Below are positions 2,521 to 23,936 of a stretch of 52,154 nucleotides of DNA, in pieces; position 1 is the first letter of the stretch, and each line of letters begins with the position of its first letter. This DNA comes from Candidatus Micrarchaeota archaeon. GTDB taxonomy: Archaea; Micrarchaeota; Micrarchaeia; Micrarchaeales; CABMGC01. Under the pieces are notes generated by a model. It worked only from the letters and a program-made list of their open reading frames with translations. It was not told where the DNA came from and searched no databases. The position numbers and the translations under genes were made by a program. Location of the stretch: positions 1-52,154 of the forward strand of contig DAHUYR010000036.1 of the NCBI GenBank assembly GCA_027315135.1. Direction: 5' to 3'.

Positions 2521-2536
2521 TTGTTTCTAATCTGTT

Positions 2537-5188: not shown

Positions 5189-5208
5189 TTAAAACCGAGT
5201 GTTATAAC

Positions 5209-6588: not shown

Positions 6589-6592
6589 AGAT

Positions 6593-7786: not shown

Positions 7787-8988
7787 CCAACCTCCTCAAC
7801 TTCAGTCATAAGAGTCTTTTCAATCGTCTCCTTCATGCGCTCCGGAGAGTATGCCAGCTTTATCAGCTTCGTATGTCCTCTTATCCCCTTTCCGGATTCG
7901 TAAGCGGAAATAAGCCCCTGCATCTCAAGATCAAAGACGTACTTCCTGTACCATCGTGAACTCTTAGGTCCCTTGTTCAGGCTATTCGCTATCGATGCGT
8001 ACTTGTTGTAAATATCTCCGCTGAATAAATAGGTCTCACTGTCGCCGCTGAGCCTCTTGTACCTACTTCCTTGTATTGACAAAAGCGAGATTGCGTATAT
8101 AATGAGGCGCTGATGCTCCGGAAGTGTGTTGACAAGTTCATATACCAGTTCCTCCTCTGCAGCTTCGGTTGCCTTGTTAACATCATTTACTGTGATTACG
8201 CCGTCTCCACGTTCATCAGCAAGCTCTCCTGCCTTTGAAAGCACCTTCAACGCAAGCCTTGCGTCCCCGCTGTCCTTCGCAGATATCGCAGCAGCAAGAT
8301 TTATCACCGCCTGATCAATAACTCCTTTCTTGAAGCCCTTCTCTGCCCTTTCCTTTAGTATCAATGCAAGTTCATTAGAGTTGTAAGGCGGAAATACCAA
8401 CTCGTTTTCGTAAAGCGTCGAAAGGCTTCTTGGATCAAGGTCCTCCTTGAAGGATATCTTGTTCGACACCCCTACTATCATTATGCCTCCTGATTTTATG
8501 TCGCTGTTAGCCCTTGTCAGCGTGTATATAAGATCATCAAGATCCTTTACAACGTCTATCTCGTCAAGCACCACTATCAGAACCTTGCTGTCCTCTTCTA
8601 TCCAGTTTATTATACGCTCATAAATGTCTACAAGCCCGTATCCGCGCTTTGCATAAACCGGAAGATAATCACTGGTTATCTTGTAAAGGACCCTATATCT
8701 GGAATTGTATATTCTGCAATTGATGTAAGAGACCCGTGCCTTTGTCGGCAAATCCTTTATCTTATCTACAACATGCTTCACGCAGGAGGTCTTCCCAGTC
8801 CCGGTCTTTCCATAGACGAACAGGTTCCTCCCTCTCTCCCCTCTGAGCGAAGGAGTCATGTATTTGACTATATTCTCAATCTGTTTGTCCCTGAAAGGAA
8901 GGTTATCCGGCATATAGTGCGGTGAAAGAACCTCACGGTTTGCAAACACGTTTGAATCCTTGAACAGATCTGAGAAAGGCTCCTTCAT
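7783..8988 (-). CDS. cdc6: Orc1/Cdc6 replication initiator
   Basis: AAA+ Walker A (YGKTGTGKTS) and Walker B (VVLDEIDV), with a C-terminal winged-helix region. 401 aa. Confidence 0.9.
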   Translation of the reverse strand: MKEPFSDLFKDSNVFANREVLSPHYMPDNLPFRDKQIENIVKYMTPSLRGERGRNLFVYGKTGTGKTSCVKHVVDKIKDLPTKARVSYINCRIYNSRYRVLYKITSDYLPVYAKRGYGLVDIYERIINWIEEDSKVLIVVLDEIDVVKDLDDLIYTLTRANSDIKSGGIMIVGVSNKISFKEDLDPRSLSTLYENELVFPPYNSNELALILKERAEKGFKKGVIDQAVINLAAAISAKDSGDARLALKVLSKAGELADERGDGVITVNDVNKATEAAEEELVYELVNTLPEHQRLIIYAISLLSIQGSRYKRLSGDSETYLFSGDIYNKYASIANSLNKGPKSSRWYRKYVFDLEMQGLISAYESGKGIRGHTKLIKLAYSPERMKETIEKTLMTEVEEVG

Positions 8989-9791
8989 TTTGTCACCAAC
9001 CCTGCTTTTCTAATCATATTCTCAAATTCCTGCTTCACAGAACTGTCATGTAGCACAGGTACTCTTCCAGAGTCACTCATCTCTCCAAATATCTTATTTG
9101 CCGTAACCTTGCCGACCAAATCGCAGCCAAGCTCCGCAGCAACCTCCTCTCCCCCATTTCCGCTACCGTCAGACATGTTTTCAACCACTCCAAGAAGAGC
9201 CACCCCAAGCCTTTTTGCCATCATCCCTGACCTTATGGTATTTACTGCTGATATATGCCTGGGTGTAGTAACAAGCAAGAAGCCGTCCAAAGACAGCAGC
9301 TGTATTATTGACAGAGGAGCATCGCTGGTTCCAGGAGGCAGATCTATTATAAGATAATCTAAAGGCCCCCAATCTGTATTGTCAAGAAACTCGCGTATCA
9401 TCTTCGCAACGAGCGGCCCCCTCCATATTATCGGCTTTTTCACATCGTCAACAAACATGGAAGTCGAAACAACCTTCACGCCATCCTTCTCTGCAGGCTT
9501 GAGCGGATACTCATCAGAAAAGGCTCCTTTTATTCCAAGGAACATCAGCGTATTAGGGCAGTCAATGTCAGCGTCAATCAAGCCGACTTTGTAACCCATG
9601 CTGCTAAGTGTAAAGGCTGTGTTAACTGCTACGGTGGTCTTTCCCACCCCTCCTTTCGCGCTGTAAACTCCTATCTTATGTTTTATATTGGAGAGCTTCT
9701 GATTTATGTTCTTCTTATCCTCTATCACTCTAAGTATGGATGAGTGCATCATATTCGTTCCTGCTCCTTGATTCTGTTCAGTGTCAGCCAT
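8985..9791 (-). CDS. Mrp/NBP35-family ATPase (Fe-S cluster carrier, ApbC-like)
   Basis: Deviant Walker A SAKGGVGKTT, plus GLIDADIDCPN and VENMS motifs. The ATG is at 9791; the track's longer ORF starts at TTG 9803. Confidence 0.85.
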   Translation of the reverse strand: MADTEQNQGAGTNMMHSSILRVIEDKKNINQKLSNIKHKIGVYSAKGGVGKTTVAVNTAFTLSSMGYKVGLIDADIDCPNTLMFLGIKGAFSDEYPLKPAEKDGVKVVSTSMFVDDVKKPIIWRGPLVAKMIREFLDNTDWGPLDYLIIDLPPGTSDAPLSIIQLLSLDGFLLVTTPRHISAVNTIRSGMMAKRLGVALLGVVENMSDGSGNGGEEVAAELGCDLVGKVTANKIFGEMSDSGRVPVLHDSSVKQEFENMIRKAGLVTK

Positions 9792-9924
9792 AGATTTCCC
9801 CAAGAATTAATAGTGCATTACTATATGAGCATATAGTATATAAATTAAATGAAGTAAAAGGTTATAGCGAGCTTAAGCCCATCCTATAACCGAAACCATT
9901 ACGGGTACCATACAAACGGGGCAT

Positions 9925-9940
9925 CTGAAAGTTCTTTCAG
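9925..9940. promoter_or_regulatory. perfect 7-bp-arm palindrome CTGAAAG-TT-CTTTCAG abutting the TATA region of surface-protein gene A
   Basis: Read directly: ctgaaagttctttcag. TATA-like elements follow immediately. Confidence 0.3.
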
Positions 9941-9958
9941 TATAAAAAGTTATATATA
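9941..9958 (+). promoter_or_regulatory. TATA-box-like elements (tataaaaa / ttatatata) upstream of 9981 ATG
   Basis: The AT-rich box lies 23-40 nt upstream of the start codon. That spacing implies a leaderless or very short-leader mRNA. Confidence 0.35.
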
Positions 9959-9980
9959 CTGTAGCCAAATAAATTACAAT

Positions 9981-12900
9981 ATGGGTTCGGTTTCAGAAAA
10001 CCAAGGTTCAATCACATTCCTACTTCTACTTACTATTGCAATTTCAGCATTTTTTCTCCCTAGCGTTGGCGCATCTGCTTTTACTGCAACACCTGGCTCG
10101 TTCACTCTCTCAAACACAATAATAGACGTAGGACAGATCTCCGTTGCAAACACAGTGATAAGCGGCGGTTCAGGAGGCCCATATTCTGGCCAATGGTCCG
10201 AATTTAATGCAAATCAGATAAACAATCAAGTGATAAACACAATCACAGTTGGCTCCCTTCCCTACAGCGCAGCCTTCAACCCTTCCGGAACGCTTGCATA
10301 TGTGTTGAACTCCTTCTCAAACACAGCAAACGTAATCAACACAGCAACCAATACTGTGATACATACAATAACTGTAGGCTCCAACCCCGAGAGCGTGGCC
10401 TTCAGCCCTTCAGGAACGCTTGCATACGTAGTAAACGATGGATCAGGCACTGTAAACGTAATCAACGTAGCAACCAACACAGTGATACACACAATAACCG
10501 TGGGCAACGGTCCCTATACTGCAGCCTTCAGCCCTTCAGGAACGTTAGCCTACGTAACGGGAGGTTCAAACACCATAAGTGTAATCAACGTAGCAACCAA
10601 CACAGTGATAAACACAAGAACCGTGGGCAACACTCCTTATGGCGTAGCCTTCTCCCCTTCAGGAACACTCGCATACGTGACGAATCAAGGCTCAAACACC
10701 ATAAGTGTAATCAACACAGCAACCAACACAGTGATAAACACAATAACCGTTGGCACAACTCCATACAATGTGGCCGTCAACCCTTCAGGAACACTTGCAT
10801 ATGTGGTGAACAAAGGCTCAGATACCACAAGTGTAATCAACACAGCAACCAACACAGTGATAAACACAATAACCGTGGGCACCAGTCCTTTTAGTGTGGC
10901 CTTCAACCCTTCCGGAACACTTGCATACGTGTTGAACTCCTTCTCAAACAACGCAAGCGTAATCAACGTAGCAACCAACACAGTGATAAATACAGCAACT
11001 ACAGGCTCCGGACCGGTTGGTGTAGCCTTCAACCCTTCCGGAACACTTGCATACGTGGTTAATGAAAACTCAAACAATGTAAGCGTAATCGGAAACCTTC
11101 CAGAAACATCTATACAAGAACTTCCACAGACATCAAATGCTCTATCACTTACTATAAACGCTCAGAACAGCAATACACTCTCTCTAACCTTCAACGGAGT
11201 TGCTTACACAGAAAGTACAGGCTCTAACAGCATTTACGGCACATGGTCCCTCTACGGATTCGCACAGGACAACGGCACCAAAATATACTACTACGGCAGC
11301 AACACTCTTCTCCTTTCAAATTCATTGACCATAAATCCCGCGCTTACTGTTGGTTCCGTGACCCCTGCGTTATTAACAACAGATGGTGGCCAGAGCGTAA
11401 CACTTACAGGAACATGGTCAGGCGGAACTTCTCCATACACAGCCAAGTGGTATACAGGACCTGCAGGGAATACCTGTGCAGAGGACAGTACAAACATCCT
11501 TGCAACACATTCAGGATTGTCATTAACATCCAACTCCATATCTGTAACTCCTACTACTACAAACTCCTACTGCATAGGAGTGACGGATTCAGCCAGTACT
11601 CCGGTAACTCAACTCTCGGCAAATGATGTAGTAACAGTCAACCCTGCCTTATCCGTTCCAACAATCAGCCCATCAAACCCAACAATAAATTCAGGACAGT
11701 CAGTAACCTTTACAGCTTCATGGACAGGAGGTACGCCGATTTATGGTTCATCCCTGTATTCTTCAACAACCCCATCAACCTGCAACCAACAATCAACCCT
11801 TGTACAGCAGGTCACAGGCATTTCAACAACATCTGTCACGTTCTCTCCAGTAACTCCTAATTCAAATACCTATTACTGCGTCTTTACTACAGACGATATT
11901 GTAAATTTCTACTCAATATCAAATGCGATAATCTCTGGCATCAGTGCTCCTTCAGGAGTATCTATCTCCCCTTCAGGAACGTTAGCCTACGTGGCAAATG
12001 AAGGTAGTGATAATGTAGTGATCATCAATACAGCAACCAATTCAGTAACAGCTTCCATAACCTCTGGCTTTAGTGATATTCAAGGAGTATCTATCTCCCC
12101 TTCAGGAACCTATGCCTACGTAACCAACTGTAATATAACATGTGCTTTTGCCAACATCCCTGACAATGTAGTGATCATAAACACAGCAACAAACTCAGTA
12201 ACAGCTTCCATAACCTCTGGTTTCAATATTCCTTATCCAATATCCTTCTCCCCTTCCGGCACCTATGCCTACGTGGCAAATCAAGGTAGTAATAATGTAG
12301 TGATCATCAACACAGCAACAAACTCAGTAACAGCTTCCATAACCTCTGGCTTCAGCAATCCTGCAGGAGTAGCCTTCTCCCCTTCCGGCACCTATGCCTA
12401 TGTTACAAATCTGAATACCAACAATGTAGTAATCATCAACACGGTCACCAATTCAGTAATCGGTTCCATAACCTCTGGCTTCAGCGGTCCTGAAGAAGTA
12501 TCCATCTCCCCTTCCGGCACCTATGCCTACGTAACAAATTTTAACTCCAACAATGTAGTAATCATCAACACGGTCACCAATTCAGTAATCGGTTCCATAA
12601 CCTCTGGCTTCAACGAGCCTTCAGGAGTATCATTCTTTCCTTCAGGAAGCTATGCGTATGCAACAAACCTTGGCTCTAGCAATGTAGTAATCATCAATAC
12701 AGGAGCGGATATACCCAACAGCATAAACTCTGAAGTTATGATAAACACTGGAACTTCAGTCAGCAACCCATATGCAGGCGGATCCACAGGATTCTTTGGG
12801 CACCTGCCTGGGGCAACAACAATAACCTCATCTTCAACTACAACAGCCACAACAACTGCACCAACCACTTCTGCCGTCATAACTGCGCCTGTAATAACAG

Positions 12901-13469
12901 CATCAGGTACAACGGCTCAGATATGCAATGACACACATGGATACAGTGTGAATTATCCTTTGCTAAACTCAACCTTCTACTTCAAACCATCGGCTTCATC
13001 ATGCTTCAATGTAACTGCCAGCAATGCCTCCTCAACATACATCGGTTCAAACAGTGAAATAATAAGGGCAATAAATTACTCATTCAGCAACAACCGCATA
13101 CTATCAAACCTGACTATCTATTACCCAAGCAGTACTGCACCATCTGTACTACTCCCAGTCATCCTGAAGAATGGCACATGGGATGGGATAACTCCATTCA
13201 CAGTAAATGTCGCAGCGCATACGGTCACATTTGCAGCCCCTACAGGTCATGTTGTCGCACTGTTAAACACATCCAAATCAGGCATCACGACCAACACTAC
13301 TACAAACGCTACGACTTCTCTGAATACAACAACTGCGCAGACTACTCTTCCTTCAGCAATCCAGGGAAATAACTCCTCTTCATGGGAGATAGTTGCAATA
13401 GTTGTAGTTGTCATAATAGCGATTGCAATTCTAGTTTATCTGTGGCTAAGGACAAACAGGAAGTGGTGA
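9981..13469 (+). CDS. giant surface protein A: signal peptide, 7x YVTN propeller repeats, PKD/Ig-like modules, 6x YVTN repeats, sequon-rich module, C-terminal TM anchor
   Basis: N-terminal signal ITFLLLLTIAISAFFLPSVGASA. The unit ..AFSPSGTLAYV.N..SN..SVIN.ATNTVI.TI recurs. Modules of the form SGQSVTFTASWTGGTP.Y...C...SYC are present. The C-terminus is WEIVAIVVVVIIAIAILVYLWLRTNRKW. Confidence 0.9.
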   Translation: MGSVSENQGSITFLLLLTIAISAFFLPSVGASAFTATPGSFTLSNTIIDVGQISVANTVISGGSGGPYSGQWSEFNANQINNQVINTITVGSLPYSAAFNPSGTLAYVLNSFSNTANVINTATNTVIHTITVGSNPESVAFSPSGTLAYVVNDGSGTVNVINVATNTVIHTITVGNGPYTAAFSPSGTLAYVTGGSNTISVINVATNTVINTRTVGNTPYGVAFSPSGTLAYVTNQGSNTISVINTATNTVINTITVGTTPYNVAVNPSGTLAYVVNKGSDTTSVINTATNTVINTITVGTSPFSVAFNPSGTLAYVLNSFSNNASVINVATNTVINTATTGSGPVGVAFNPSGTLAYVVNENSNNVSVIGNLPETSIQELPQTSNALSLTINAQNSNTLSLTFNGVAYTESTGSNSIYGTWSLYGFAQDNGTKIYYYGSNTLLLSNSLTINPALTVGSVTPALLTTDGGQSVTLTGTWSGGTSPYTAKWYTGPAGNTCAEDSTNILATHSGLSLTSNSISVTPTTTNSYCIGVTDSASTPVTQLSANDVVTVNPALSVPTISPSNPTINSGQSVTFTASWTGGTPIYGSSLYSSTTPSTCNQQSTLVQQVTGISTTSVTFSPVTPNSNTYYCVFTTDDIVNFYSISNAIISGISAPSGVSISPSGTLAYVANEGSDNVVIINTATNSVTASITSGFSDIQGVSISPSGTYAYVTNCNITCAFANIPDNVVIINTATNSVTASITSGFNIPYPISFSPSGTYAYVANQGSNNVVIINTATNSVTASITSGFSNPAGVAFSPSGTYAYVTNLNTNNVVIINTVTNSVIGSITSGFSGPEEVSISPSGTYAYVTNFNSNNVVIINTVTNSVIGSITSGFNEPSGVSFFPSGSYAYATNLGSSNVVIINTGADIPNSINSEVMINTGTSVSNPYAGGSTGFFGHLPGATTITSSSTTTATTTAPTTSAVITAPVITASGTTAQICNDTHGYSVNYPLLNSTFYFKPSASSCFNVTASNASSTYIGSNSEIIRAINYSFSNNRILSNLTIYYPSSTAPSVLLPVILKNGTWDGITPFTVNVAAHTVTFAAPTGHVVALLNTSKSGITTNTTTNATTSLNTTTAQTTLPSAIQGNNSSSWEIVAIVVVVIIAIAILVYLWLRTNRKW
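10221..11090 (+). repeat. coding tandem repeat array, 7 units of about 123-126 bp (YVTN beta-propeller blades), protein A block 1
   Basis: The unit caaccaacacagtgata(a/c)acacaataaccgt(g/t)ggc recurs at about 10471, 10594, 10718, 10844 and 10972. At protein level PSGTLAYV occurs 7 times. Confidence 0.85.
11928..12706 (+). repeat. coding tandem repeat array, 6 YVTN units of about 126-150 bp, protein A block 2
   Basis: SPSGTYAYV(T/A)N..(S/T)NNVVIINT occurs 6 times. Tracts 12421-12483 and 12550-12612 are identical 63-mers. Confidence 0.85.
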
Positions 13470-13901
13470 CCCTAAAATAAGGGACATCTGCTTAATCAAA
13501 ACCAAACCCTATGCTACTATGCTTTTGTTGGCAATTGTCACCTTGCAGAAGATAAACCCGCATGAAAAACAGAAGGATCAGACTGGGAAATGCCAGAAGG
13601 CTGTGCCTCAGCGCTTGTACCTATGCATAGACACGGACGATGAAAAAAGTGTAAGACACATACTCGGAATCCTCAAAGTCAGGATCATTCCAAGAATCAG
13701 CTGCCTTGTATCTCCTCACCCAATTACACCGTAAAGAAAATATAACGAACACATATAAGATGGCGAGAAGAATCGAACATTAACACAGATGTCTAGAATT
13801 TACCTTTTTACTGAGGTACCTTTACGGAACAACTCCCATAGCTAAACTCCCACATTTATTAATATCGCATAATTAAATAATATGAACAAGTGGGCTAACC
13901 T

Positions 13902-16900
13902 ATGAAGCTAATATCATACTTTGCTCTTACTATATCTGTAGTAATACTACTCTCATTATCATATTCAGTAGCTGCAACTACTACATTATCAATATCTTCA
14001 ATAACTCCTTCAAATCCTAACGTAGATAGCGGCCAATCCATTACCATCACTGCAGCGTGGTCAGGCGGAACCTCTCCATATACTGTAACGTGGTATACGG
14101 GCCCTGACGGGACTACCTGCCTTCAGGAATCGGCAAACGCACTCGCAACGTACACGGGTCTATCAGGCACATCAAATAGCCTATTGGTCTCCCCTGCGAC
14201 AACCAATTCCTACTGCATAGGCGTGACGGACTCAGAATCTCCAGCAGTGACACAATTATCCTTGAACTACAGTATAAGCGCTGGGATAACCTCAGGATTC
14301 AATAATCCGCTCGGAGTAGCATTCTCCCCATCAAATACATATGCATACGTGACGAACCAGAATACCAATAACGTAGTTATCATAAACACAGCAACTAACA
14401 CTGTAATAAACTCAATAACTTCTGGGTTTAATAACCCGCAAGAGGTAGCATTCTCCCCAGGCGGTACATATGCCTATGTTGCGAACTGGAACTCTAATAA
14501 TGTAGTAATCATCAACACAGCAACCAACACCGTAGTAAATGCGATAACCTCCAGCCTTAATTCTCCTTACGGAGTAGCCTTCTCCCCTTCCGGCACCTAC
14601 GCCTATGTTACAAATTCAGGCACCGGCAATGTGGTAATTATTAGCACAGCAACCAATACGGTAACTGGAGTTATCAACCCATTTGATACGGGAGGTGCGT
14701 CAGGAGTAGCATTTTCCCCTTCCGGCACCTATGCCTACGTAGCAAACAGCGGCAGTAGCAACATAGCTATAATCAACACAGCAACCAATACGGTAACTGG
14801 TTACATTACATCTGGTTTTGGCAATTTTGATCCTGAAGGAGTATCCTTCTCCCCTTCAGGAACCTATGCCTATGTGGTAAACAAATATGCGGACAATGTG
14901 ATGATAATTAACACAGCTACCAATACCGTGGAAGGTTCGATACACGTGAGTTTCAGCAACCCGGAAGAAGCAGCCTTTCTTCCGTCTGGTAATTATGTCT
15001 ACATAAGTAATTCTGGGTCCAACAATGTGACTATAATAAAGCCAGGACTAGGCGCAGAAACAACAAACCTAATATATTCTAACATAACAGTAAATCCTGC
15101 CCTAGGCATTCCTTCCTTATCCCCATCAAATCCGAAAATGGATTCCGGAAGTTCAGTTACTCTGGTAGCATCGTGGTCCGGCGGAACACCTACATATACG
15201 GTCAAATGGTATACAGGACCATCAGGAAATACCTGTACTCAGGATTCTGCAAATATAATTGCAACACATTCTTCAATAACCGGCACTTCAGATGTTTTAT
15301 CGGTCAGCCCAACAGCAACCAACAGTTACTGTATAGAAGTAATAGACAGTGCTTCATCTCCTGAAACGACTGTTTCAAGCACAGTTGATACAAGCATAAA
15401 TTCTGCTCTTTCCATCCCTACACTATCTCCATCCAATCCTTCAATAGACGCTGGACAGTCAATTACGCTATCATCCACATGGTCCGGCGGAACCTCAACC
15501 TATGGAGCATCATTATACTCATCTTCAACTTCAGCATGCGATACAGAATCCAATCTTGTCCAACAAACGGTTGGACTTACATCAAATACAATAACGTTTT
15601 CCTCAATATCCCCAGATTCAAGCACCTATTACTGTTCATTTATCACTGATAACACTTCAGATTCATATTCTGTAAACAGTGCAATAACATCTGGATTATC
15701 CCAACCAATTGGGCTAGCATTTTCCCCTTCCGGCACCTATGCATATGTTACAAATCAGAATGCCAACAATGTAGTGATAATCAACACAGCAACCAACACC
15801 GTAGTAAACACAATAACCTCCGGTTTCAATGCACCCATGGGGGTAGCCATCTCCCCTTCCGGAACCTATGCATACGTCGTAAACTATAACTCAAACAATG
15901 TAGTGATAATCAACACAGCAACCAACACCGTAGTAAATGCGATAATCTTTGGTATATCCGGACCACGAGGAGACGTAGCCTTCTCCCCAAGTGGTACATA
16001 TGCCTACGTGGCAAATTGTGGTTCTCCATGTGGCGGAGTTGGCAACGGCAATATAGTAATAATCAACACAGCAACCAACACGGTTTCAGGTGCAATAACC
16101 TCAGGTTTTTATTATCCGGTTGGCATAGCCTTCTCCCCTTCAGGAACCTATGCCTATGTAGCAAACAGTGGCAGCAGCAACGTAGTGATAATCAATACTG
16201 CTTCAAACTCAGTTATTAATTCAATAACATCAGGAATAAACGGCCCGTACGGAGTGGCACTTGCCCCTTCAGGAACCTATGCCTACGTTACAAACTTTAA
16301 CAGCAACAACGTAGTAGTAATCAATACTGCTACAAATACCGTAACAAGCGTCATAGTCTCTGGCATGTACTACCCATCAGGAGTAGCGTTTTCCCCAGGC
16401 GGTACATATGCTTATGCATCAGATTACTACGGAACCAATAATGTAATGATCATCAATACAAAGGCATTGACAACCAACAGCATAACAGAGGAAATAACAG
16501 TAAATCCTGCCCTTTCAGCACCATTAATCTCTCCATCCAATCCTTCAATAGACAGCGGACAGTCAGTAACCTTCAGCGGCACATGGTCCGGCGGAACTCC
16601 AGACTATACTGCAAAACTCTATTCTTCAACAACCTCAACTTGTAATTCAGGCAGCACCTTAGTACAGACGCAGGGTAGTCTAACCTCAGGAAGCACAATA
16701 TTCAGTTCGGTCAGCCCAACCACAGCCACATACTACTGCATATCTGTATCGGATTCCGCTGCAACAGTATCTACTACTAACTCGATAAACAGTGAAGTTA
16801 CAGTAAACCCCGCCCTGGCAGTCCCGACACTTTCTCCTGTATCATCAACAGTTGACTATGGTCAGAGTGCTACGCTGACAGCAGCGTGGTCCGGAGGAAG

Positions 16901-17828
16901 CAGTCCTTATACTGTCACATGGTATACTGGCCCTATGGGAAATACCTGTTCGCAGGACAGTGCAAACGTCCTTGCAACATATGCTGGAATATTAGGAACC
17001 TCAAATAGCCTACAGGTAAGTCCTGCAACTTCAAACAGCTACTGCGTCGGCATAACAGATTCTGCTTTATCTCAGGAAACGCACCTGACATCAAATGCCG
17101 TGGTAAACATCGCGCTTAATTCCACATCAAAGCAGGTAACCAACCCTTATGCAGGAGGATCTACGGGCTTCTTCGGTCACCTGCCTGGGGCAACAACAAT
17201 AACATCATCTTCGACTACCACAGCTACAACAACCACTGCGTCAACCACAACTACCGAGATAACTGTGCCTGTAATAACAGCATCAGGTACAACGGTCCAT
17301 GTGTGCAATGACACACATGGCTATAGTGTAAATTATCCTTTGCTAAACTCAACCTTCTACTTCAAACCATCGGCTTCATCATGCTTCAATGTAACTGCCA
17401 GCAATGCCACCTCAACATACATCAGTTCAAACAGTGAAATAATAAGGGCAATAAATTACTCATTCAGCAACAGCAGTATAATGTCAAACCTGACAATACA
17501 CTACCGGTGCAATGCTAGGCCTTCGGACATCTACCCATACCTACTGATGAATAATATATGGAAGGAAATAACCCCGTTCACAGTTAATGTTGCAGCCTGC
17601 ACCATAACGTTTGAAGCTCCTGCAGACCCTATCATTGCAGTACTATATTTGACACATTCTAATTCAACAAACGTAACCTCCACTACAAACACTACTGTTG
17701 CAACAATTATATCAAATACGACTCAACAGCAACCAGGCATTAACATATTTTGGGTAATTGCAATAGTGATAGTAGTTATAGCCATACTGGCTGTCGTTTA
17801 TTATATAAATAAGAGACGAAGTTTATAA
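13902..17828 (+). CDS. giant surface protein B: signal peptide, PKD-like, 6x YVTN, 2x PKD-like, 6x YVTN, 2x PKD-like, sequon-rich module, TM anchor
   Basis: Signal MKLISYFALTISVVILLSLSYSVAA and repeated AFSPSGTYAYV.N units. The C-terminal module is nearly identical to that of A. The C-terminus is IFWVIAIVIVVIAILAVVYYINKRRSL. Confidence 0.9.
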   Translation: MKLISYFALTISVVILLSLSYSVAATTTLSISSITPSNPNVDSGQSITITAAWSGGTSPYTVTWYTGPDGTTCLQESANALATYTGLSGTSNSLLVSPATTNSYCIGVTDSESPAVTQLSLNYSISAGITSGFNNPLGVAFSPSNTYAYVTNQNTNNVVIINTATNTVINSITSGFNNPQEVAFSPGGTYAYVANWNSNNVVIINTATNTVVNAITSSLNSPYGVAFSPSGTYAYVTNSGTGNVVIISTATNTVTGVINPFDTGGASGVAFSPSGTYAYVANSGSSNIAIINTATNTVTGYITSGFGNFDPEGVSFSPSGTYAYVVNKYADNVMIINTATNTVEGSIHVSFSNPEEAAFLPSGNYVYISNSGSNNVTIIKPGLGAETTNLIYSNITVNPALGIPSLSPSNPKMDSGSSVTLVASWSGGTPTYTVKWYTGPSGNTCTQDSANIIATHSSITGTSDVLSVSPTATNSYCIEVIDSASSPETTVSSTVDTSINSALSIPTLSPSNPSIDAGQSITLSSTWSGGTSTYGASLYSSSTSACDTESNLVQQTVGLTSNTITFSSISPDSSTYYCSFITDNTSDSYSVNSAITSGLSQPIGLAFSPSGTYAYVTNQNANNVVIINTATNTVVNTITSGFNAPMGVAISPSGTYAYVVNYNSNNVVIINTATNTVVNAIIFGISGPRGDVAFSPSGTYAYVANCGSPCGGVGNGNIVIINTATNTVSGAITSGFYYPVGIAFSPSGTYAYVANSGSSNVVIINTASNSVINSITSGINGPYGVALAPSGTYAYVTNFNSNNVVVINTATNTVTSVIVSGMYYPSGVAFSPGGTYAYASDYYGTNNVMIINTKALTTNSITEEITVNPALSAPLISPSNPSIDSGQSVTFSGTWSGGTPDYTAKLYSSTTSTCNSGSTLVQTQGSLTSGSTIFSSVSPTTATYYCISVSDSAATVSTTNSINSEVTVNPALAVPTLSPVSSTVDYGQSATLTAAWSGGSSPYTVTWYTGPMGNTCSQDSANVLATYAGILGTSNSLQVSPATSNSYCVGITDSALSQETHLTSNAVVNIALNSTSKQVTNPYAGGSTGFFGHLPGATTITSSSTTTATTTTASTTTTEITVPVITASGTTVHVCNDTHGYSVNYPLLNSTFYFKPSASSCFNVTASNATSTYISSNSEIIRAINYSFSNSSIMSNLTIHYRCNARPSDIYPYLLMNNIWKEITPFTVNVAACTITFEAPADPIIAVLYLTHSNSTNVTSTTNTTVATIISNTTQQQPGINIFWVIAIVIVVIAILAVVYYINKRRSL
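14275..15046 (+). repeat. coding YVTN repeat array (6 units), protein B block 1
   Basis: Six units of the form (G/E)VAFSP(S/G)(G/N)TYAYV.N......V.II.TATNTV. Confidence 0.8.
15679..16466 (+). repeat. coding YVTN repeat array (6 units), protein B block 2
   Basis: Six units. aatgtagtgataatcaacacagcaaccaacaccgtagtaaa recurs at about 15768 and 15897. Confidence 0.8.
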
Positions 17829-17907
17829 TGACTGAATAATGCAGTGTGCTCGCGATTTAAAGTCAAACTTATAAAGACACATATTCTAAATATATCTCGG
17901 TAAACTG

Positions 17908-20900
17908 ATGCACGTTTACGATTCTAACAATATTGGGACATTGACAGTTTATGTGGCCGTCGCCATAATTGCAATAACAGTTCTTCCTGCTTTTACAAAT
18001 GCCTCTATTACCAGCGTGACCCTCTCTCCTGCAAAAGTGACAATAAATTCAGGTTCTCCAGTAACCTTTACGGTTTCATGGTCAGGCGGAACATCTCCAT
18101 ATGATGTATCGCTTTTCTCCTCCTTAACTCCATCATGCAACGCGTATTCTACGTTTGTGCAGCAGGAAACTGCCGTATCTGCAAACTCGGCTGACTTCTC
18201 TTCTGTAACCCCATCAGCAAATACCTACTACTGCGCCTATGTGACGGACAATTCTCCCGAGATTTATTCGATAAGCAACATCATAAGTAGCAACTCCATA
18301 ACTCAGGGGTTCTACTATCCTGTATCTACTTCCTTCGCTCCGTCCGGCAAATACGCATATGTAACAAACCCCACCGGCGAGGACATAGTGATAATCAACA
18401 CTACAACAAATTCGATAATCAGCGCAATATTAAAAGACACAGATCCGCAGGAGGTAGCCATCTCGCCCAACGGCGCATATGCCTATGTGACAAATCTTAA
18501 CGATAACAACGTATCTGTGATAAATACTACTACAAATACAGTATCAGAACTTCTGAATTCAGGATTCAGTTCTCCGACAGGAGTAGCCTTCTCCCCTTCA
18601 GGAACATATGCCTATGTGGCAAATCTTGGAAGCAACAATGTGGTGGTGATTAACACTGCGACAGGCACAATAACAAGTTCAATAACCTCCGGTCTGAGCG
18701 GTCCCGAAGGGATATCATTCTCCCATTCAGGAACATTTGCGTACATCACAAATTCCGCTTCCAACAACGTAGTGATAGTCAATACTAATTCAAACACAAT
18801 CACTGGTTCGATAATCTCAGGCTTCAGCCAGCCCGAGTCCGTGGCGATAGCTCCGGTAGGAACCTATGCCTACGTGTCAAATCCTTATGCGCACAACGTA
18901 GTGATAATCAACACAGCAACCAATTCGGTGCTAGGCGCAGAGGCACTGAACAGCTACGATCCGATGGGCATGGCATTCTCCTCTTCAGGCACGTACATGT
19001 ACATACTGAACTACTCATTATATTCAGGAAAGGTACTGGTCGTAAACCCCGGAGAAGAAGTGGCAAACAGCACCAGTAGCAATATAATAATCAATACTCC
19101 ATTACAGGTCCCTATAATAACTCCATCTAATCCAACAATAGACTTCGGGCAGGCAATAACGCTTACGGCTTCGTTAGTAGGCGGAAACGTCCCATATAAC
19201 GCAATCTGGTATACCGGACCATCAGGAAACACCTGCGCTCAGGACAGCTCAAATACTCTAGCAGCATACTATGGGTTGTCTACAGCATCAAATAGCCTAC
19301 AGGTAAGTCCTGCAACTTCAAACAGCTACTGCATTATAGTGACTGATTCTTCAAACACGCCGGTCACCCAACTGTCTCAAAACGATGTGGTGCTCGTAAG
19401 CTCTGCATTAAACCTCCCTTCCATTACAGCAAGCAACACACCCTCAGTAAATACTACACAATATGAATTATTCTCAACCTCGTGGTCCGGAGGAACATCT
19501 GCGTACACTGCAAATTACCTTGTATTCAATACGATAACGCATACAGTAATGGCAAATGCTCTTTATACAGGAATAACTGTGACAAGCAACGCCTTCCTGT
19601 GGAAAGTGCCACCTGTAGCTTATGGGAACACGATATCGGCAAATGTATTGATAACCGATTCTGCATATTTTTCTGAAAAAGCAAACAGTGTGAATGTTAC
19701 TACAATAACCGTAAGTGGTACTCCACCAACTTCTACCACAACATCTACGACTTCCACCTCTTCCACATCATCAACAACGTCTACAACAACCACTGTATCA
19801 AGCGGCGGAGGAAGCAGTGGTGGAGGCGGAGGCAGTGGTGGAGGAGGTTCATTCAAGCCTTCAGTAGTGCCGTACAACACCTCCAGCGTGCATGGCTGGA
19901 AGATACTAAACTTCTCGCAAGACAACACAGAGAATGTTGAGATAAATGGCAAGATGTTCGACATAACACTGAACTCGATATCCCCAACGTTGGTAGACAT
20001 ATCTGTGAATGGATATTCGTACACGCTCAACGTTAATCAGCCGGTATCACTTACAGGCTCGAGCAACTACCTGCTTAACCTCAATTCGATATCGTACCTG
20101 CCGATAGTCGATACTGCTGCGGTGTACATATATACTAACGAATCCATCCCGACGCATATAACACCAGTCAGCGTTACTACAAACGAATCAAATCCAACAA
20201 TCGGAATAAACGTGACATACTTGAAGCCTGAAGTATTCAATCTTGCTGCGGATAACGTAATCATTGGCATAAGATATCTAAATTCAAAATCTCCCAATAC
20301 AATAAAAGGCAAATTATCTGTACTGAACGTGACTGCAAACATGTCTCTGCCAGCAAACTACGTCAAGATAAGGCTGCTGAACATAACCGAAAACACCACT
20401 CCTGTAAACCAGAGCCTATCACTGAACCTATCCATAAGATACAATTGCAGCATACCATCATCAAGGCAGTCGGCGTTCATATATGAAAACGGAGTATGGG
20501 TCAAGATAACTACTCTTTCAATAAATTCTGCTACCTGTACCACAGAATTCAACATATCTGCTGATCCAATCGTCGGACTATTCGAAGCAAAAGTAATAAG
20601 CAACACAACCTCAAGCACAATACCTGCCACGTCAGTTCCAGTAACAACTGTCAATAATCATGCAAACAGCACCAAGACAGCTGGAGCTTCACATTATTCA
20701 GGGGGCATAACTGCAGTAGTTGTCGCAAGTATAATAGCAGTAGTAGCAATTGTATTTTATGAATATCGGCGCATAAAAAGAGGCAAAATCCCGCCTACGG
20801 TGCTGCCAGGAAGCACCGCTACGGCAGATTCTAAAATAAACAGTACGCCCTCTTCTACAGACGCTTCTTCCGGTCTTGGAGATACAAACAGGACAGAAGA

Positions 20901-22392
20901 TTCAAGAGATGAACCGGGATACAAACGCATAATAGGGACAGATCTTTACTTTATTACTGCAATTATAATTCTATTTGCAGCAGCGACAATAATCAGCATA
21001 TCTAACAGCCATATAAATATGCTTGGACAAGTTACTCCTCCTGTTAAACTGACAGAAGTTAACATCCTAACGGGCATATATTCATTTCCTTCAGCCCCAA
21101 CAAACCTTATTCTTGTAAACCAAGGCTGGAACAATAGCAACGGTTTTTACCTTTTTCAAGGCAACTATGTCCAAAACGTATATTCTCTTACAAATTACCA
21201 AACAATACAATGGTCTGCAGCAACAAATGGCACTTATCCAATAGCGTACTATGAAATATACAGGAACGGAGTGGCATACGCTACGGTAAATGCTCCTACC
21301 AAATTCCAAGGATATATCAACGGCGATATATTAACTGTAACAAACATAATCTCAGGGACAATAGTCGAAGGAGCCGACTACAATGCAACTGGAGTTGCAG
21401 CACAGACGATAATCAACATTACAAATAATGGTCATCAAATTAACGGCACGCCTGGAGGTATTGGTAGCTATTATGTGAATATTCCTCAGACAGCAGGCAG
21501 CGCGAATTCTCCAGTAACTTTCACAGCATGGCAATTCATAGACAGCAATGCCACAAATAGCGACAACAAATTTTTCAATTCAACCATAACGGCATACTCT
21601 TATGCAGTAGCTGCTGTCGACTCGCATAACCAGTCAGGTCCTATGGACACTAATTACACTTCATACGGATACTACAACGGCTATTCGGATTGGGGGTATG
21701 CTAACTACAATTACGGAGGAGGCACTTTCAACTTTTTCAGCACGGCTGGAGATCCGCCTGCAGTAAATGCACCTTACGTTATCCAGGCAAACACTATCGG
21801 CCATGGAGGCGGACTGCTAATAGTGGCAAACCCTCCCAGATCTCCAGACCTTACCTTTGGTATTGGGGCATTCAAATATGCGATAATAGAAGTTAATCCT
21901 GGTCCGTCCATAAATTATACTCTAGGAGTAGACCAATTCGTCCGCCTCCCTCCAGGAGACTTATACGGGTGGATGACATATAATGATTCAAATGCATTCA
22001 TATATGGTCCTATAGGTTATCCTAAGGTAAACACCTGGGAGACTCTCAAAATACCCCTTACAACTCTCGGTATCGGACAGTGCACATTCACAGGTTCAAT
22101 ATCTGGAAATGTTCTAACAGTGACTTCAATAGATTCAGGGCCAGCAATAGTCGAAGAAGGCGGCTTTATCTACGGTCCAGGGATACCTGCAGGCGCATAC
22201 ACGATAGGCAACAATCAGAGCAATGCCATCGGTACGTTCACTATTGCAGGGCCTGGGATAAATGCTTCTACGCATGTGCCTAGCGAAATCATGAGCTATC
22301 AGAAAACTGCTTTCTACAAGACAGGAATATGGGATAGCGGTCTTGGAGGACATATTTACTACGTAAGTAAAATAGGCTGGACTACTAATTAG
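17908..22392 (+). CDS. giant surface protein C: paralog of A/B (signal, PKD-like, 6x YVTN, PKD-like modules, S/T+Gly linker, beta-rich module, TM+basic stop-transfer) fused to a second TM helix and a ~460-aa unrecognised C-terminal domain
   Basis: Single uninterrupted ORF of 1494 aa. TM1 is ITAVVVASIIAVVAIVFY followed by RRIKRGK (20707-20790). TM2 is LYFITAIIILFAAATIISIS (20944-21003). The extension runs to 22392. Confidence 0.85.
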   Translation: MHVYDSNNIGTLTVYVAVAIIAITVLPAFTNASITSVTLSPAKVTINSGSPVTFTVSWSGGTSPYDVSLFSSLTPSCNAYSTFVQQETAVSANSADFSSVTPSANTYYCAYVTDNSPEIYSISNIISSNSITQGFYYPVSTSFAPSGKYAYVTNPTGEDIVIINTTTNSIISAILKDTDPQEVAISPNGAYAYVTNLNDNNVSVINTTTNTVSELLNSGFSSPTGVAFSPSGTYAYVANLGSNNVVVINTATGTITSSITSGLSGPEGISFSHSGTFAYITNSASNNVVIVNTNSNTITGSIISGFSQPESVAIAPVGTYAYVSNPYAHNVVIINTATNSVLGAEALNSYDPMGMAFSSSGTYMYILNYSLYSGKVLVVNPGEEVANSTSSNIIINTPLQVPIITPSNPTIDFGQAITLTASLVGGNVPYNAIWYTGPSGNTCAQDSSNTLAAYYGLSTASNSLQVSPATSNSYCIIVTDSSNTPVTQLSQNDVVLVSSALNLPSITASNTPSVNTTQYELFSTSWSGGTSAYTANYLVFNTITHTVMANALYTGITVTSNAFLWKVPPVAYGNTISANVLITDSAYFSEKANSVNVTTITVSGTPPTSTTTSTTSTSSTSSTTSTTTTVSSGGGSSGGGGGSGGGGSFKPSVVPYNTSSVHGWKILNFSQDNTENVEINGKMFDITLNSISPTLVDISVNGYSYTLNVNQPVSLTGSSNYLLNLNSISYLPIVDTAAVYIYTNESIPTHITPVSVTTNESNPTIGINVTYLKPEVFNLAADNVIIGIRYLNSKSPNTIKGKLSVLNVTANMSLPANYVKIRLLNITENTTPVNQSLSLNLSIRYNCSIPSSRQSAFIYENGVWVKITTLSINSATCTTEFNISADPIVGLFEAKVISNTTSSTIPATSVPVTTVNNHANSTKTAGASHYSGGITAVVVASIIAVVAIVFYEYRRIKRGKIPPTVLPGSTATADSKINSTPSSTDASSGLGDTNRTEDSRDEPGYKRIIGTDLYFITAIIILFAAATIISISNSHINMLGQVTPPVKLTEVNILTGIYSFPSAPTNLILVNQGWNNSNGFYLFQGNYVQNVYSLTNYQTIQWSAATNGTYPIAYYEIYRNGVAYATVNAPTKFQGYINGDILTVTNIISGTIVEGADYNATGVAAQTIINITNNGHQINGTPGGIGSYYVNIPQTAGSANSPVTFTAWQFIDSNATNSDNKFFNSTITAYSYAVAAVDSHNQSGPMDTNYTSYGYYNGYSDWGYANYNYGGGTFNFFSTAGDPPAVNAPYVIQANTIGHGGGLLIVANPPRSPDLTFGIGAFKYAIIEVNPGPSINYTLGVDQFVRLPPGDLYGWMTYNDSNAFIYGPIGYPKVNTWETLKIPLTTLGIGQCTFTGSISGNVLTVTSIDSGPAIVEEGGFIYGPGIPAGAYTIGNNQSNAIGTFTIAGPGINASTHVPSEIMSYQKTAFYKTGIWDSGLGGHIYYVSKIGWTTN
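18290..19053 (+). repeat. coding YVTN repeat array (6 units), protein C
   Basis: The six units are SFAPSGKYAYVTN, ISPNGAYAYVTN, FSPSGTYAYVAN, FSHSGTFAYITN, IAPVGTYAYVSN and FSSSGTYMYILN. Confidence 0.8.
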
Positions 22393-22510
22393 TCTAGTAA
22401 AAACTCTGCTTAAGTTAGCCTCAGTGCTTGTACCTATTCAGGCACGTAATCAAAAGGTATTTAAGGGTAAACCCCTAAATACGATTGCTATTTTATACTA
22501 AAATTGCTAA

Positions 22511-22518
22511 TTATATAT
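22511..22518 (+). promoter_or_regulatory. TATA-box-like element (ttatatat) upstream of psmA
   Basis: It lies 26-33 nt upstream of the ATG at 22544, consistent with a leaderless transcript. Confidence 0.3.
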
Positions 22519-22543
22519 GCAAAGTGTATATGTGGTGTAATCT

Positions 22544-23242
22544 ATGTACCCAAACGTGCAAGCTTATGATAGAGGAGTGATGTTCAATCCAGACGGAAGG
22601 CTCTTTCAGGTAGAGTATGCGAAGGAAGCAGTAAGAAAGGGCGCAACCTCTATAGGGATAGTAGGAAAGGACAACGTAGTACTTGTGGCGCACAAGAACA
22701 TAAACGACCCTCTGGCAGTGCCGAGCACTATACAGAAGGTATTCAGGATAGACTCACGCATATGCGCAACATATTCTGGAATGGTATCAGACGGACTGCA
22801 CATAATAGACACTGCAAGATCAAGCACCCAGAACCACAGAATGCTTTTCGACGAGATAAAGTCTATAGAATCACTTTCAAAGAACATCTCTTCATATATG
22901 ATGCAGGCTACGCAATACGGAGGAATGCGCCCATATGCAGTCTCGCTCCTTCTAGGCGGAATTGACGATCACGGACCTAGGCTCTTCGAGATAGAGCCAG
23001 GAGCATCATTCCTTGGATACAAGGCAGATGCTATAGGTTCAGGAAAGAAAGTGGCAATGGATCTACTCATCAAGGAATATGAGGATGACATGTCGCTTGA
23101 CAAGGCACTGGCTCTCGGAGTCAAGGTAATAAAGAAAGTGAGCGAAGGAAAACTCACAGAAGACAATCTTGACATAGGCTATGTGAACGAAAAGGATGGC
23201 TTCTCACTGCTTTCCAAGGAGAAGACTAAAGAATACATATGA
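22544..23242 (+). CDS. psmA: proteasome subunit alpha
   Basis: The N-terminus AYDRGVMFNPDGRLFQVEYAKEAVRKGATSIGI is the canonical alpha-subunit signature. 232 aa. Confidence 0.95.
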   Translation: MYPNVQAYDRGVMFNPDGRLFQVEYAKEAVRKGATSIGIVGKDNVVLVAHKNINDPLAVPSTIQKVFRIDSRICATYSGMVSDGLHIIDTARSSTQNHRMLFDEIKSIESLSKNISSYMMQATQYGGMRPYAVSLLLGGIDDHGPRLFEIEPGASFLGYKADAIGSGKKVAMDLLIKEYEDDMSLDKALALGVKVIKKVSEGKLTEDNLDIGYVNEKDGFSLLSKEKTKEYI

Positions 23243-23252
23243 CAGTGACAGC

Positions 23253-23936
23253 ATGTCCAAAACAGTAATAGCAAAATACTCTCATTCAGGAGAAGACTTC
23301 GAAATATTTGTTGATTCGGACAAGGCTTACGATTTCATAACCGGCAAGCTCAACGATCCGATGAAGGTACTGGAAGCAGAAGAGGTATTTTCTGATGCAA
23401 ACAAAGGAGAGCGCCAAAGCCAGGACAAGATAAAGAAGATATTTAATACGACTGACATCTCAAAAGTAGCAGAGTTCATACTCAAGCACGGAAATGTGCC
23501 GGTAACCACGGAACAGAAAAGCAAACTCATGGAAGATAAGAAGAGGCAGATAATAAACATAATAGCGCGTAATTCGATAGATCCAAGGACCAAGGCCCCA
23601 CATCCGCCGCAGAGAATCGAGAACGCGATGCATGAAGCAAGGATTACTATAGATCCTTTCAAAGGCGCCAATGAGCAGGTAGACGACATCGTCAAGAAGC
23701 TCAGCCTGAAGCTGCCTATAAAGTTCGCGACAATGAAGATCGAGGTATGCATACCTGCTGAATATACAAACAGATGCTATGGAACGCTCAAGCAGTACGG
23801 ATTGAAATCAGAGGAATGGCAGCCTAACGGCTCGCTCAAGTGCGTACTGGAATTCCCTGCAGGCTTGCAAGGTGAATTCTTCGAGAAGATAAACAACGCA
23901 ACAAAAGGAAATGTTACAACAAGAAATCTAGAATAA
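23253..23936 (+). CDS. sdo1: ribosome maturation protein SBDS/SDO1 homolog
   Basis: ATG 23253 (MSKTVIAKYSHSGEDFEIFVDSDKAYDF...) matches the SBDS N-terminal domain. It occupies the conserved position between psmA and rrp4. Confidence 0.85.
   Translation: MSKTVIAKYSHSGEDFEIFVDSDKAYDFITGKLNDPMKVLEAEEVFSDANKGERQSQDKIKKIFNTTDISKVAEFILKHGNVPVTTEQKSKLMEDKKRQIINIIARNSIDPRTKAPHPPQRIENAMHEARITIDPFKGANEQVDDIVKKLSLKLPIKFATMKIEVCIPAEYTNRCYGTLKQYGLKSEEWQPNGSLKCVLEFPAGLQGEFFEKINNATKGNVTTRNLE

Follow-up and report, generated by a model that had tools for sequence, protein, structure and literature searches.

Three propeller and Ig-like module genes in a strain-variable island of a Candidatus Micrarchaeota genome encode candidate anchored surface adhesins

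The stretch of DNA analysed here (the window) comprises 52,154 nt of a Candidatus Micrarchaeota archaeon (contig DAHUYR010000036.1, assembly GCA_027315135.1). Between the genes of an Mrp/ParA protein and of the proteasome alpha subunit (psmA), it carries three large, co-oriented genes, here called A, B and C, whose products combine YVTN beta-propellers with immunoglobulin (Ig)-like modules. The best explanation is that they diverged long ago within a large family of Micrarchaeota surface proteins, of type I and with a C-terminal membrane anchor. Judged from their sequences, they are likely, though far from certainly, accessory, glycosylated, stalk-mounted adhesin or receptor proteins that are encoded in a strain-variable island. 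An earlier reading of the window, made from the sequence alone (the sequence-only reading), had already listed the three open reading frames (ORFs) of 1162, 1308 and 1494 aa. Their exact coordinates and lengths were reproduced, as was the estimate that they occupy about a quarter of the window (12.4 of 52.2 kb). The coordinates of all features are given in Table 1.

An island inserted between Mrp and psmA

In sister Micrarchaeota (L007-L011, L013, L014, L016 and L018), Mrp and psmA are only ~220 bp apart and the island is missing. Such empty sites are found in the closest sister metagenome-assembled genomes (MAGs), whose core proteins are 84-95% identical to those of the window, as well as in more distant Micrarchaeota. 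In the window, remnants of the spacer are retained on both sides, 45 bp on the left (9804-9848) and about 97 bp on the right (~22445-22541), and the DNA between them (~9849-22444) is therefore an insertion.

Four states of the site were found, namely empty, A, B+C and A+B+C. Near-identical strains, with flanks of 94-99% nucleotide identity, carry other versions than the window. Three contigs (L001, L002, L003) have B and C without A. In L001, positions 1-1001 correspond to positions 8848-9848 of the window and positions 1201-11097 to positions 13469-23368, with the 3' flank of gene A kept. Another contig (L089) has an ortholog of A alone between Mrp and psmA. The B-C segment is flanked by the two copies of a 23-bp imperfect direct repeat (GCCTCAG[C/T]GCTTGTACCTAT[G/T]CA; 0 matches expected by chance), and a single hybrid copy of this repeat is located exactly at the junction in L089 (11166-11185). 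Neither sister species nor the other loci contain this repeat. Its arrangement would fit a deletion or insertion by recombination at this site. At the island borders, neither an integrase nor an outer target duplication was found, the internal 23-bp repeat being the only such element. The haplotype contigs are MEGAHIT k141 assemblies, in which a 23-bp repeat cannot cause a misjoin.

Between strains, synonymous codon differences outnumber nonsynonymous ones in all three genes (158/62 in B, 104/69 in C, 123/86 in A). A, B and C have thus been maintained as coding genes, which indicates purifying selection.

Domain anatomy of the three proteins

The sequence-only reading had described one or two arrays of 6-7 YVTN units of about 41 aa in each protein. 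These arrays were found again, with a blade period of 42-43 aa in a motif scan. The NCBIfam model of the YVTN repeat, TIGR02276 (cut-off 27.85 bits), matches 11 stretches in A (402.9 bits, E=1e-123), 11 in B (268.7 bits, E=1e-81) and 5 in C (95.1 bits, E=2e-27). Seven 'TLAYV' and six 'TYAYV' blades are present in A and 6+6 blades in B; the single array of C has 5 blades by regular expression and 6 by hidden Markov model (HMM). Pfam reports generic propeller families, plus Ig_3 in B. The closest solved structure in a PDB sequence search is the Methanosarcina mazei YVTN+PKD 'surface layer protein' (1L0Q_A, E=5.7e-43), in keeping with the precedent in Methanosarcina surface-layer proteins named in the sequence-only reading. 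Pizza6, a designer protein with six blades, can be aligned over the full length of the six-blade arrays (E~1e-18 for B propeller 2).

The blades of gene A are homogenised. Tandem Repeats Finder (TRF) reports a 126-bp period with 6.9 copies and 77% matches for propeller 1 and a 129-bp period with 4.2 copies and 83% for propeller 2. Overall, aa identity is 69-72% within the arrays of gene A vs 45-63% between arrays, and the blades of propeller 1 are 72% identical within their array vs 45-50% to other arrays. For the arrays of B and C, within-array similarity is no higher than between-array similarity. The A ortholog of L089 (7893-11030) is 117 aa shorter than that of the window, the gap lying inside window-A residues 158-365 and equalling three 126-bp blade units. 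Its first array has 4 detectable blades, which may represent real variation in blade number.

The second recurrent unit is a module of ~97 aa. Nine copies carry a Cys pair exactly 32 residues apart, a tenth copy (in C) is Cys-free, and the N-terminus of A holds a truncated half-copy. Two subtypes can be distinguished, alpha ('WYTGP.GNTC', 47-61% mutual identity) and beta ('LYSS.T.C', 39-55%). The modules of roughly 95 aa with a conserved Cys pair in the sequence-only reading are hence confirmed, but their proposed PKD identity is not. PKD models (PF00801, PF18911) matched neither the whole proteins nor the module pair (E<=1) nor the 10 isolated modules (E<=1), and 1L0Q aligns over its propeller only, with the PKD part unaligned. 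Ig_3 (PF13927), in turn, matches whole B with 42.9 bits vs a cut-off of 30 bits. At the level of single modules, 6 out of 10 match Ig_3, each below the gathering score (best E=6.7e-5); a few match I-set, Ig_2 or Ig_7, the last in two of the ten and weakly. A ten-module profile searched against the PDB matches only antibody V, PD-1 and DSCAM domains (E 0.01-1). Since no PKD profile matches at any level and Ig_3, I-set, Ig_2 and Ig_7 do, the modules are provisionally classed as Ig-like rather than PKD.

All three proteins share a C-terminal module of ~115 aa (CT), which is flanked by S/T-rich linkers and followed by a transmembrane (TM) helix. CT has no sequence match in Pfam or the PDB beyond noise. 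A profile built from the CT alignment retrieved a single, uninformative protein from a word-indexed database, and an exhaustive search of representatives was used instead. It places CT in 477 clusters (50% identity) at E<=1e-3 and in 313 at E<=1e-10. Among 81 full-length representatives, CT ends at a median of 65 aa from the C-terminus and a TM helix lies within the last 60 residues in 70. YVTN blades are present in only 15 of them, and most of the other ectodomains are without a Pfam match. CT is an unannotated and so far undescribed domain.

An AlphaFold2 (AF2) model of CT, computed from a 22-sequence alignment, is all-beta with 12 strands (pLDDT 84). The best Foldseek matches are the ZU5 domain of ankyrin (4d8o, E=1.8e-3), the GAIN domain of BAI3 (4dlo_B, E=8e-3, prob 1.0, TMq 0.49) and the FIIND of NLRP1 (7crw, E=0.03). 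For the top matches, prob is >=0.99 and TMq 0.47-0.56 at 9-12% sequence identity and marginal E-values, which suggests a ZU5/GAIN-B-like fold class rather than proven homology to these domains. The most conserved positions are Y84, C86, W103 and C116 (98% each), F120 (93%) and the motif P123-x-D125-P126 (84%, 95% and 95%); the pattern C...C...DP is found in 197 of 214 CT domains. In the AF2 model, the Asp-Pro sits in the turn between the last two strands. The catalytic HX(S/T) of GAIN-B and of microbial GAIN-B-like (MAIN) domains is absent: in 197 of 214 CT domains this turn reads P-x-D-P, and no His or Ser/Thr is conserved there. In gene A of the window, C86, C116 and the D-P are all lost together, and all are kept in its 85% ortholog. 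The linker and CT of gene A show 18/19 synonymous/nonsynonymous differences, vs 26/6 in the Ig region. A CARDB domain (PF07705) was not matched by the whole proteins, by sub-regions or by the 22 CT modules at E<=10.

Of all peptide bonds, Asp-Pro is the one most labile to acid, and it is where 'GDPH'-type autocatalysis cleaves. A speculative proposal, which is rather improbable, is that CT represents an acidophile-archaeal GAIN/MAIN variant in which nicking at Asp-Pro, in the acid surroundings of these cells, replaces HX(S/T), the ectodomain being held non-covalently and possibly shed under force. The island would then be a strain-level host-specificity cassette, and gene A of the window, which has lost the Asp-Pro along with one disulfide, would be a non-cleavable variant. 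If this were true, the propeller/Ig adhesins would be releasable.

At the other end, each protein starts with a hydrophobic segment with small residues at positions -3/-1 of the predicted cleavage site (ASA before F in A, SVA before A in B, TNA before S in C), so that signal-peptide-like N-termini are present in all three, as had been noted, with cleavage as a prediction. A and B end 5-6 residues past the TM helix in basic tails. The combination of S/T-rich stalk, TM helix and short basic tail, which had been ascribed to all three proteins, therefore holds for A and B; C, in contrast, continues past its first TM helix (TM1) to a second (TM2) and a 460-aa domain. No sorting-signal model in NCBIfam that would indicate PGF-CTERM/archaeosortase processing matches, and the C-termini (...SSSWEIVAIVVV... 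and ...INIFWVIAIV...) are without PGF. The content of charged residues (K+R+D+E) is 3.7% in A, 4.8% in B and 6.8% in the ectodomain of C. Such a low charge of exported proteins would fit an acidic habitat.

In A and B, Asn makes up 10-11% and Ser+Thr ~30% of the propeller and Ig parts. Here, N-X-S/T sequons number 4 in A and 4 in B, each vs ~30 expected, and 6 vs 15 in C. The linker, CT and stalk regions of A, B and C hold 13 vs 6.1 expected, 12 vs 5.9 and 10 vs 4.3, respectively, which is about a twofold enrichment. The extension of C holds 13 vs 7.4 expected. The direction of the bias is consistent across all three genes. The sequon-rich beta module of the earlier description thus corresponds to CT and is common to A, B and C, and the proteins overall are not sequon-rich, their propeller and Ig parts being depleted. 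The bias implies that these proteins encounter an oligosaccharyltransferase. A candidate is encoded 9 kb downstream by ORF 31296-34400, whose 1034-aa multi-TM product contains the motif 'WWDYGDW' and, in its N-terminal part, a long charged insert. Its match to STT3-PglB_core (STT3/PglB/AglB core) is weak (E=1.3e-3) and missed at standard Pfam thresholds; a GT4 glycosyltransferase gene follows directly. The ORF probably encodes a divergent AglB oligosaccharyltransferase. The predicted architecture of A, B and C is that of anchored, glycosylated surface proteins.

Gene C is the longest of the three, as stated before, and its extra length is a fusion to an FN3/beta-sandwich domain. The cluster of positive charges after TM1 predicts a TM hairpin, with which the two large domains would lie on the extracellular side. 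The homologs of the extension occur on their own, as proteins of 446-695 aa that are 50-54% identical to it over ~90% of its length (E down to 1e-130). Most of them carry Calx-beta, and 30 out of 87 have lipobox-like N-termini, which identifies them as bacterial-type lipoproteins. This family of secreted FN3 and beta-sandwich proteins (P0121-P0207) consists mostly of bacterial lipoproteins, whose charge content is similarly low (median K+R+D+E 8.1%). The conserved C-terminal ~300 aa of the extension have no Pfam model, and the linker of A, the mid module of C and the extension of C gave only noise against Pfam and PDB sequences. The AF2 model of the extension is all-beta (pLDDT 88.5). Foldseek returned nothing below E=0.03 for the whole extension, the matches comprising FN3 (1k85, prob 1.0) as well as CBM11 and CBM15 (prob 0.5-0.7, E>0.09). 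The extension was probably acquired by horizontal transfer from a bacterial-type gene.

Proposed function and competing explanations

According to the favoured model, A, B and C would be exported by the N-terminal signal peptide and held in the membrane via one TM helix and a basic cytoplasmic tail, with N-glycans concentrated on the membrane-proximal linker, CT and stalk. The stalk would raise a charge-depleted, acid-stable ectodomain, probably to or through the surface layer (S-layer). The 6- and 7-bladed YVTN propellers would be the likely multivalent ligand- or glycan-binding heads, and the Ig-like modules spacers between them. C would bear a second extracellular FN3/beta-sandwich domain, similar to carbohydrate-binding modules (CBM), via a TM hairpin, captured from a bacterial-type gene. 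The within-species polymorphism of A, B+C and A+B+C would be as expected for accessory adhesins or host- or matrix-recognition proteins under diversifying or frequency-dependent selection. The sequence analysis shows the domain anatomy and family membership, the insertion with its haplotypes, the purifying selection and the sequon bias; surface exposure, glycosylation, a binding function and the identity of the ligand are inferred from it.

DPANN archaea depend on contact with a host cell, and cultured Micrarchaeota are attached to Thermoplasmatales hosts. To our knowledge, no molecule that mediates recognition is known for Micrarchaeota. The locus would provide a concrete and tractable set of candidates for Micrarchaeota cell recognition, and the strain-variable presence of A, B and C makes a correlation with host, partner or niche testable in existing metagenomes. 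It also yields a module map for a family that is labelled in databases only as 'YVTN/YncE family protein', and in CT an unannotated juxtamembrane domain of ~477 clusters, which the MAIN preprint (see below) makes directly testable for cleavage. If none of this holds, the proteins belong to an ordinary, already anticipated class of archaeal surface proteins.

Several points weigh against the adhesin model. The YVTN fold has no fixed function, its members including the DNA-binding YncE and enzyme subunits. Among 80 Micrarchaeota psmA neighbourhoods (1.26 Mb), YVTN ORFs were found at 3 loci only and CT modules at 1; the synteny of the island is thus not conserved. The shuffling statistics for the sequon depletion, with 0 of 2000 shuffles reaching the counts in A and B, are optimistic because the repeated blades are not independent. 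Finally, some Micrarchaeota lineages may be free-living (PMC12892359), and a 'host' ligand is therefore not guaranteed.

In the alternative with the most weight, A, B and C bind environmental polymers, biofilm matrix or nutrients (glycans, extracellular polymeric substances, minerals) rather than a host cell, as scavenging or biofilm-attachment proteins. It is unlikely. In its favour, beta-propellers with near-identical blades are typically multivalent lectins, and the blades of A are homogenised. The extension of C combines FN3 with a CBM-like part and is homologous to Calx-beta lipoproteins of bacteria. For one cultured Micrarchaeon, biofilm formation is a requirement (PMC8975820). However, the CBM similarity is weak, and no glycoside hydrolase or other enzyme domain is found in A, B or C. 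Moreover, the polymer-binding explanation does not exclude the adhesin model, from which it differs in the ligand alone.

For gene C it can be argued that the ORF joins two genes through a sequencing or assembly error, or that the extension is made separately from an internal start. The stand-alone homologs of the extension, the termination of A and B shortly past the TM helix and an in-frame GTG at 20800 within the loop of C, from which the extension might also be initiated separately, would all agree with this. Nevertheless, this explanation as a whole is improbable. Two assemblies made independently from other samples (L001 and L002) contain the intact 1494-codon ORF as well; 173 of its codons differ (104 synonymous, 69 nonsynonymous) and there is no indel, which supports a real fusion. 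The sequon enrichment of the extension also fits an extracellular location.

That the three proteins build the S-layer lattice, or belong to the structural components without which the envelope cannot form, is very unlikely. The best PDB match is indeed named 'surface layer protein', the three proteins are large, probably glycosylated and C-terminally anchored, and a TM-anchored partner is conceivable for the anchoring of a Micrarchaeota S-layer protein. The experimentally identified Micrarchaeota S-layer protein SLP_Mh, however, has PF05123/TIGR01564/TIGR01567-type domains and no propeller, and none of these models matches A, B or C in Pfam or NCBIfam. The true lattice protein of Methanosarcina is a DUF1608 protein and not a YVTN/PKD protein. 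Nor is the presence at the psmA locus constitutive: A is absent from L001 and L003, B+C from L089 and the entire block from sister species, which would not be expected of a lattice protein that is essential.

A recent local tandem triplication whose copies are kept alike by concerted evolution, as assumed in the sequence-only reading, is highly improbable, and for the genes as wholes the sequence comparisons refute it. The three genes are adjacent, co-oriented and have module types in common, and homogenisation does occur in two places, namely within the blades of gene A and in a stretch of 486 nt (linker and start of CT) that A and B share at 83%. It is confined to these, the remainder of A and B being 66-71% identical. 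At the protein level, identity by BLASTP is only 40% for A-B, 38% for A-C and 36% for B-C, and the Ig modules are only 47-61% identical within a subtype. The arrays of B and C contain blades no more alike within than between arrays. Much closer relatives exist in other genomes: for A, an ortholog at 85% identity (P0034) and homologs at 58% that share its architecture; for B, an ortholog at 95% (P0001) and homologs at 51-55%, several of them with B-like architecture. As each gene is closer to relatives elsewhere than to its neighbours, they did not arise by a recent triplication, and the haplotypes A, B+C and A+B+C fit a gain or loss of cassettes rather than duplication.

The family to which the three genes belong is large. 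More than 1000 proteins match B at E<1e-10, with no identical entry in an exact look-up, and the names obtained by cluster look-up give nothing beyond 'YVTN/YncE family'. In module-HMM maps of the top 60 homologs, the A type ('P7-alpha-beta-P6-CT'), B-like and triple-propeller (1670-1720 aa) architectures are all common. The double-propeller mosaic, which had seemed unfamiliar, is hence usual in this family, as are even triple propellers. Elsewhere in Micrarchaeota, housekeeping genes surround single family members or pairs of them, at sites that are unrelated. On L088 (1-6130), a C-like gene ('Ig-beta-P6-Ig-Ig-CT') immediately precedes an A-type gene (P0033), so that small groups of differing subfamily members recur in other places.

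Extracellular enzymes with catalytic or cofactor-binding propellers (lactonase, PQQ-associated, NosZ- or hydrazine-synthase-like) were rejected as hardly credible, since the Pfam and NCBIfam matches to Lactonase, Cytochrom_D1, PQQ_ABC_repeats, hydrazine_beta and L-NosZ arise solely from the YVTN repeat that these families have in common, the equivalog-type models score far below their cut-offs (hydrazine_beta 156 vs 560, L-NosZ 119 vs 700, PQQ_ABC 243 vs 287), and neither motifs that bind heme, copper or PQQ nor genes of partner proteins are found nearby.

The island has archaeal housekeeping genes as neighbours (Orc1/Cdc6, Mrp/ParA, proteasome alpha, SBDS, exosome, thermosome, PolD, HisRS). 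PsmA shares 91% identity with its counterparts in five Candidatus Micrarchaeota MAGs and 65-78% with those in ~70 others, which assigns the window to a Micrarchaeon (DPANN) and agrees with the earlier guess of a small-genome archaeal lineage. Two MAGs labelled 'Candidatus Marsarchaeota' (L046, L057) have a psmA that is 72-73% identical to that of the window, as in Micrarchaeota MAGs. On this basis, the label of these MAGs and of the equally labelled protein P0002 is probably a taxonomic misassignment. On the minus strand, 59 nt (46384-46442) match a tRNA in Rfam with 33.1 bits (gathering score 29), possibly one that is truncated or unusual in form; ARAGORN calls no tRNA in the entire window. 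ORFs of 127-136 aa overlap A and C in another frame or strand (10685-11077, minus; 11243-11626, plus; 19620-20030, minus) and look like shadows of repetitive, compositionally biased coding sequence rather than genes.

Table 1 Features of the island and of the proteins it encodes (positions in the window)
Feature	Position	Strand	Description
Inserted island	9849-22444	+	12.6 kb in the divergent spacer between Mrp and psmA; carries A, B, C
Gene A	9981-13469	+	1162 aa; signal peptide, half-Ig, 7-blade YVTN propeller, linker, Ig-alpha, Ig-beta, 6-blade propeller, stalk, CT, stalk, TM, basic tail
A propeller 1	10239-11150	+	seven 42-aa 'TLAYV' blades, homogenised internally
A Ig-alpha	11334-11627	+	Cys 499/531
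A Ig-beta	11640-11933	+	Cys 601/633
A propeller 2	11928-12755	+	six 43-aa 'TYAYV' blades
A CT	12906-13265	+	aberrant copy: HYPC to YYPS, AAC to AAH, PSDP to PTGH
A C-terminal TM	13389-13448	+	followed by tail RTNRKW
Direct repeat, left copy	13605-13627	+	23 bp, imperfect; flanks B-C segment
Gene B	13902-17828	+	1308 aa; signal peptide, Ig-alpha, 6-blade propeller, Ig-alpha, Ig-beta, 6-blade propeller, Ig-beta, Ig-alpha, stalk, CT, stalk, TM, tail
B propeller 1	14286-15086	+	6 blades; residues 131-305 align to 1L0Q
B propeller 2	15684-16499	+	6 blades; residues 597-849 align to Pizza6
B CT	17283-17636	+	predicted 12-strand beta sandwich, two Cys pairs, Asp-Pro in APADP (17616-17630)
B C-terminal TM	17745-17807	+	followed by tail NKRRSL
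Gene C	17908-22392	+	1494 aa; signal peptide, Ig-beta, 6-blade propeller, Ig-alpha, Cys-free Ig-like module, S/T/G linker, unknown module, CT, TM1, loop, TM2, FN3/beta-sandwich extension
C CT	20293-20652	+	SADP at 20557-20568
C TM1	20707-20760	+	residues 934-951; followed by charged ~60-aa loop that begins RRIKRGK
C TM2	20944-21000	+	residues 1013-1031
C extension	21010-22389	+	460 aa, FN3 + beta-sandwich domains
Direct repeat, right copy	22418-22440	+	23 bp, imperfect; flanks B-C segment
Candidate AglB oligosaccharyltransferase and GT4 glycosyltransferase	31296-35547	+	9 kb downstream

Comparison with known systems

Several homologs of A, B and C are named 'YncE family protein' by NCBI. E. 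coli YncE (3VGZ) belongs to the same repeat family, but is a single periplasmic 7-bladed propeller of ~350 aa, and the corresponding model NF052280 scores 83 bits vs a cut-off of 400. The name is an annotation transfer and not functional evidence. The SprB-type or 'gliding motility-associated' adhesins of Bacteroidota (P0084, P0090, P0101) are likewise giant surface proteins that combine YVTN with 'GG..PY' Ig-like (SprB, Ig_7/CHU_C) repeats. They differ from A, B and C in being bacterial, in their export by the type IX secretion system (T9SS) and in their CHU_C/Por sorting domain; the matches cover 17-19% of the query at 35-45% identity.

With regard to CT, the closest analogy is provided by the microbial MAIN domains (Brogan & Rudner, bioRxiv 10.64898/2026.05.12.724683). 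Proteins with this domain consist of a signal peptide, adhesion or enzyme domains, MAIN and an anchor, and self-cleave at HX(S/T). CT resembles MAIN/GAIN-B and the eukaryotic GAIN and ZU5-UPA domains (4DLO, 4D8O, 7CRW) in domain order, in the diversity of the fused ectodomains, in a conserved motif in the turn before the last strand and possibly in fold. In contrast to these, CT shows no sequence similarity to them, has P-x-D-P for HX(S/T) and is followed by a TM anchor rather than by sortase or SLH anchoring.

M. mazei SlpB (1L0Q; Jing et al. 2002, as cited in PMC5498576) is also an extracellular mosaic of a YVTN propeller and small beta-sandwich domains, and according to that citation a role in cell-cell contact was proposed. 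1L0Q comprises one 7-bladed propeller and true PKD domains, whereas A, B and C have one or two, mostly 6-bladed propellers. They are further set apart by Ig_3-matching modules with an unusual Cys pair and by extreme charge depletion, the chain of 1L0Q having been compared over the propeller only.

Nearest in kind are proteins of another Micrarchaeon, 'Ca. Mancarchaeum acidiphilum' Mia14, for which Golyshina et al. 2017 (PMC5498576) reported no fewer than 8 secreted, strain-specific surface proteins that combine PKD-fold, Kelch/YVTN and CARDB-like modules. Four of them (MIA14_0152, _0331, _0793, _0946) fill 2.5% of the genome, and the authors proposed a role in cell-cell or host interaction. 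The other Micrarchaeota papers that were searched make no mention of such proteins. The Mia14 proteins differ in their CARDB-like module, which has no match in A, B or C, and that report gives no module map, juxtamembrane domain or population haplotypes for them. Judged from the published description and not from the sequences, they are alike in belonging to the same phylum, in being giant secreted YVTN and Ig/PKD-fold proteins, in their strain specificity and in their large share of the genome. With the host-interaction idea already published for this relative, A, B and C may by analogy mediate host attachment as well. Strain-specific YVTN surface proteins are thus already known from Micrarchaeota through Mia14; new are the insertion between Mrp and psmA with its four states, the sequon asymmetry and the CT module as a family.

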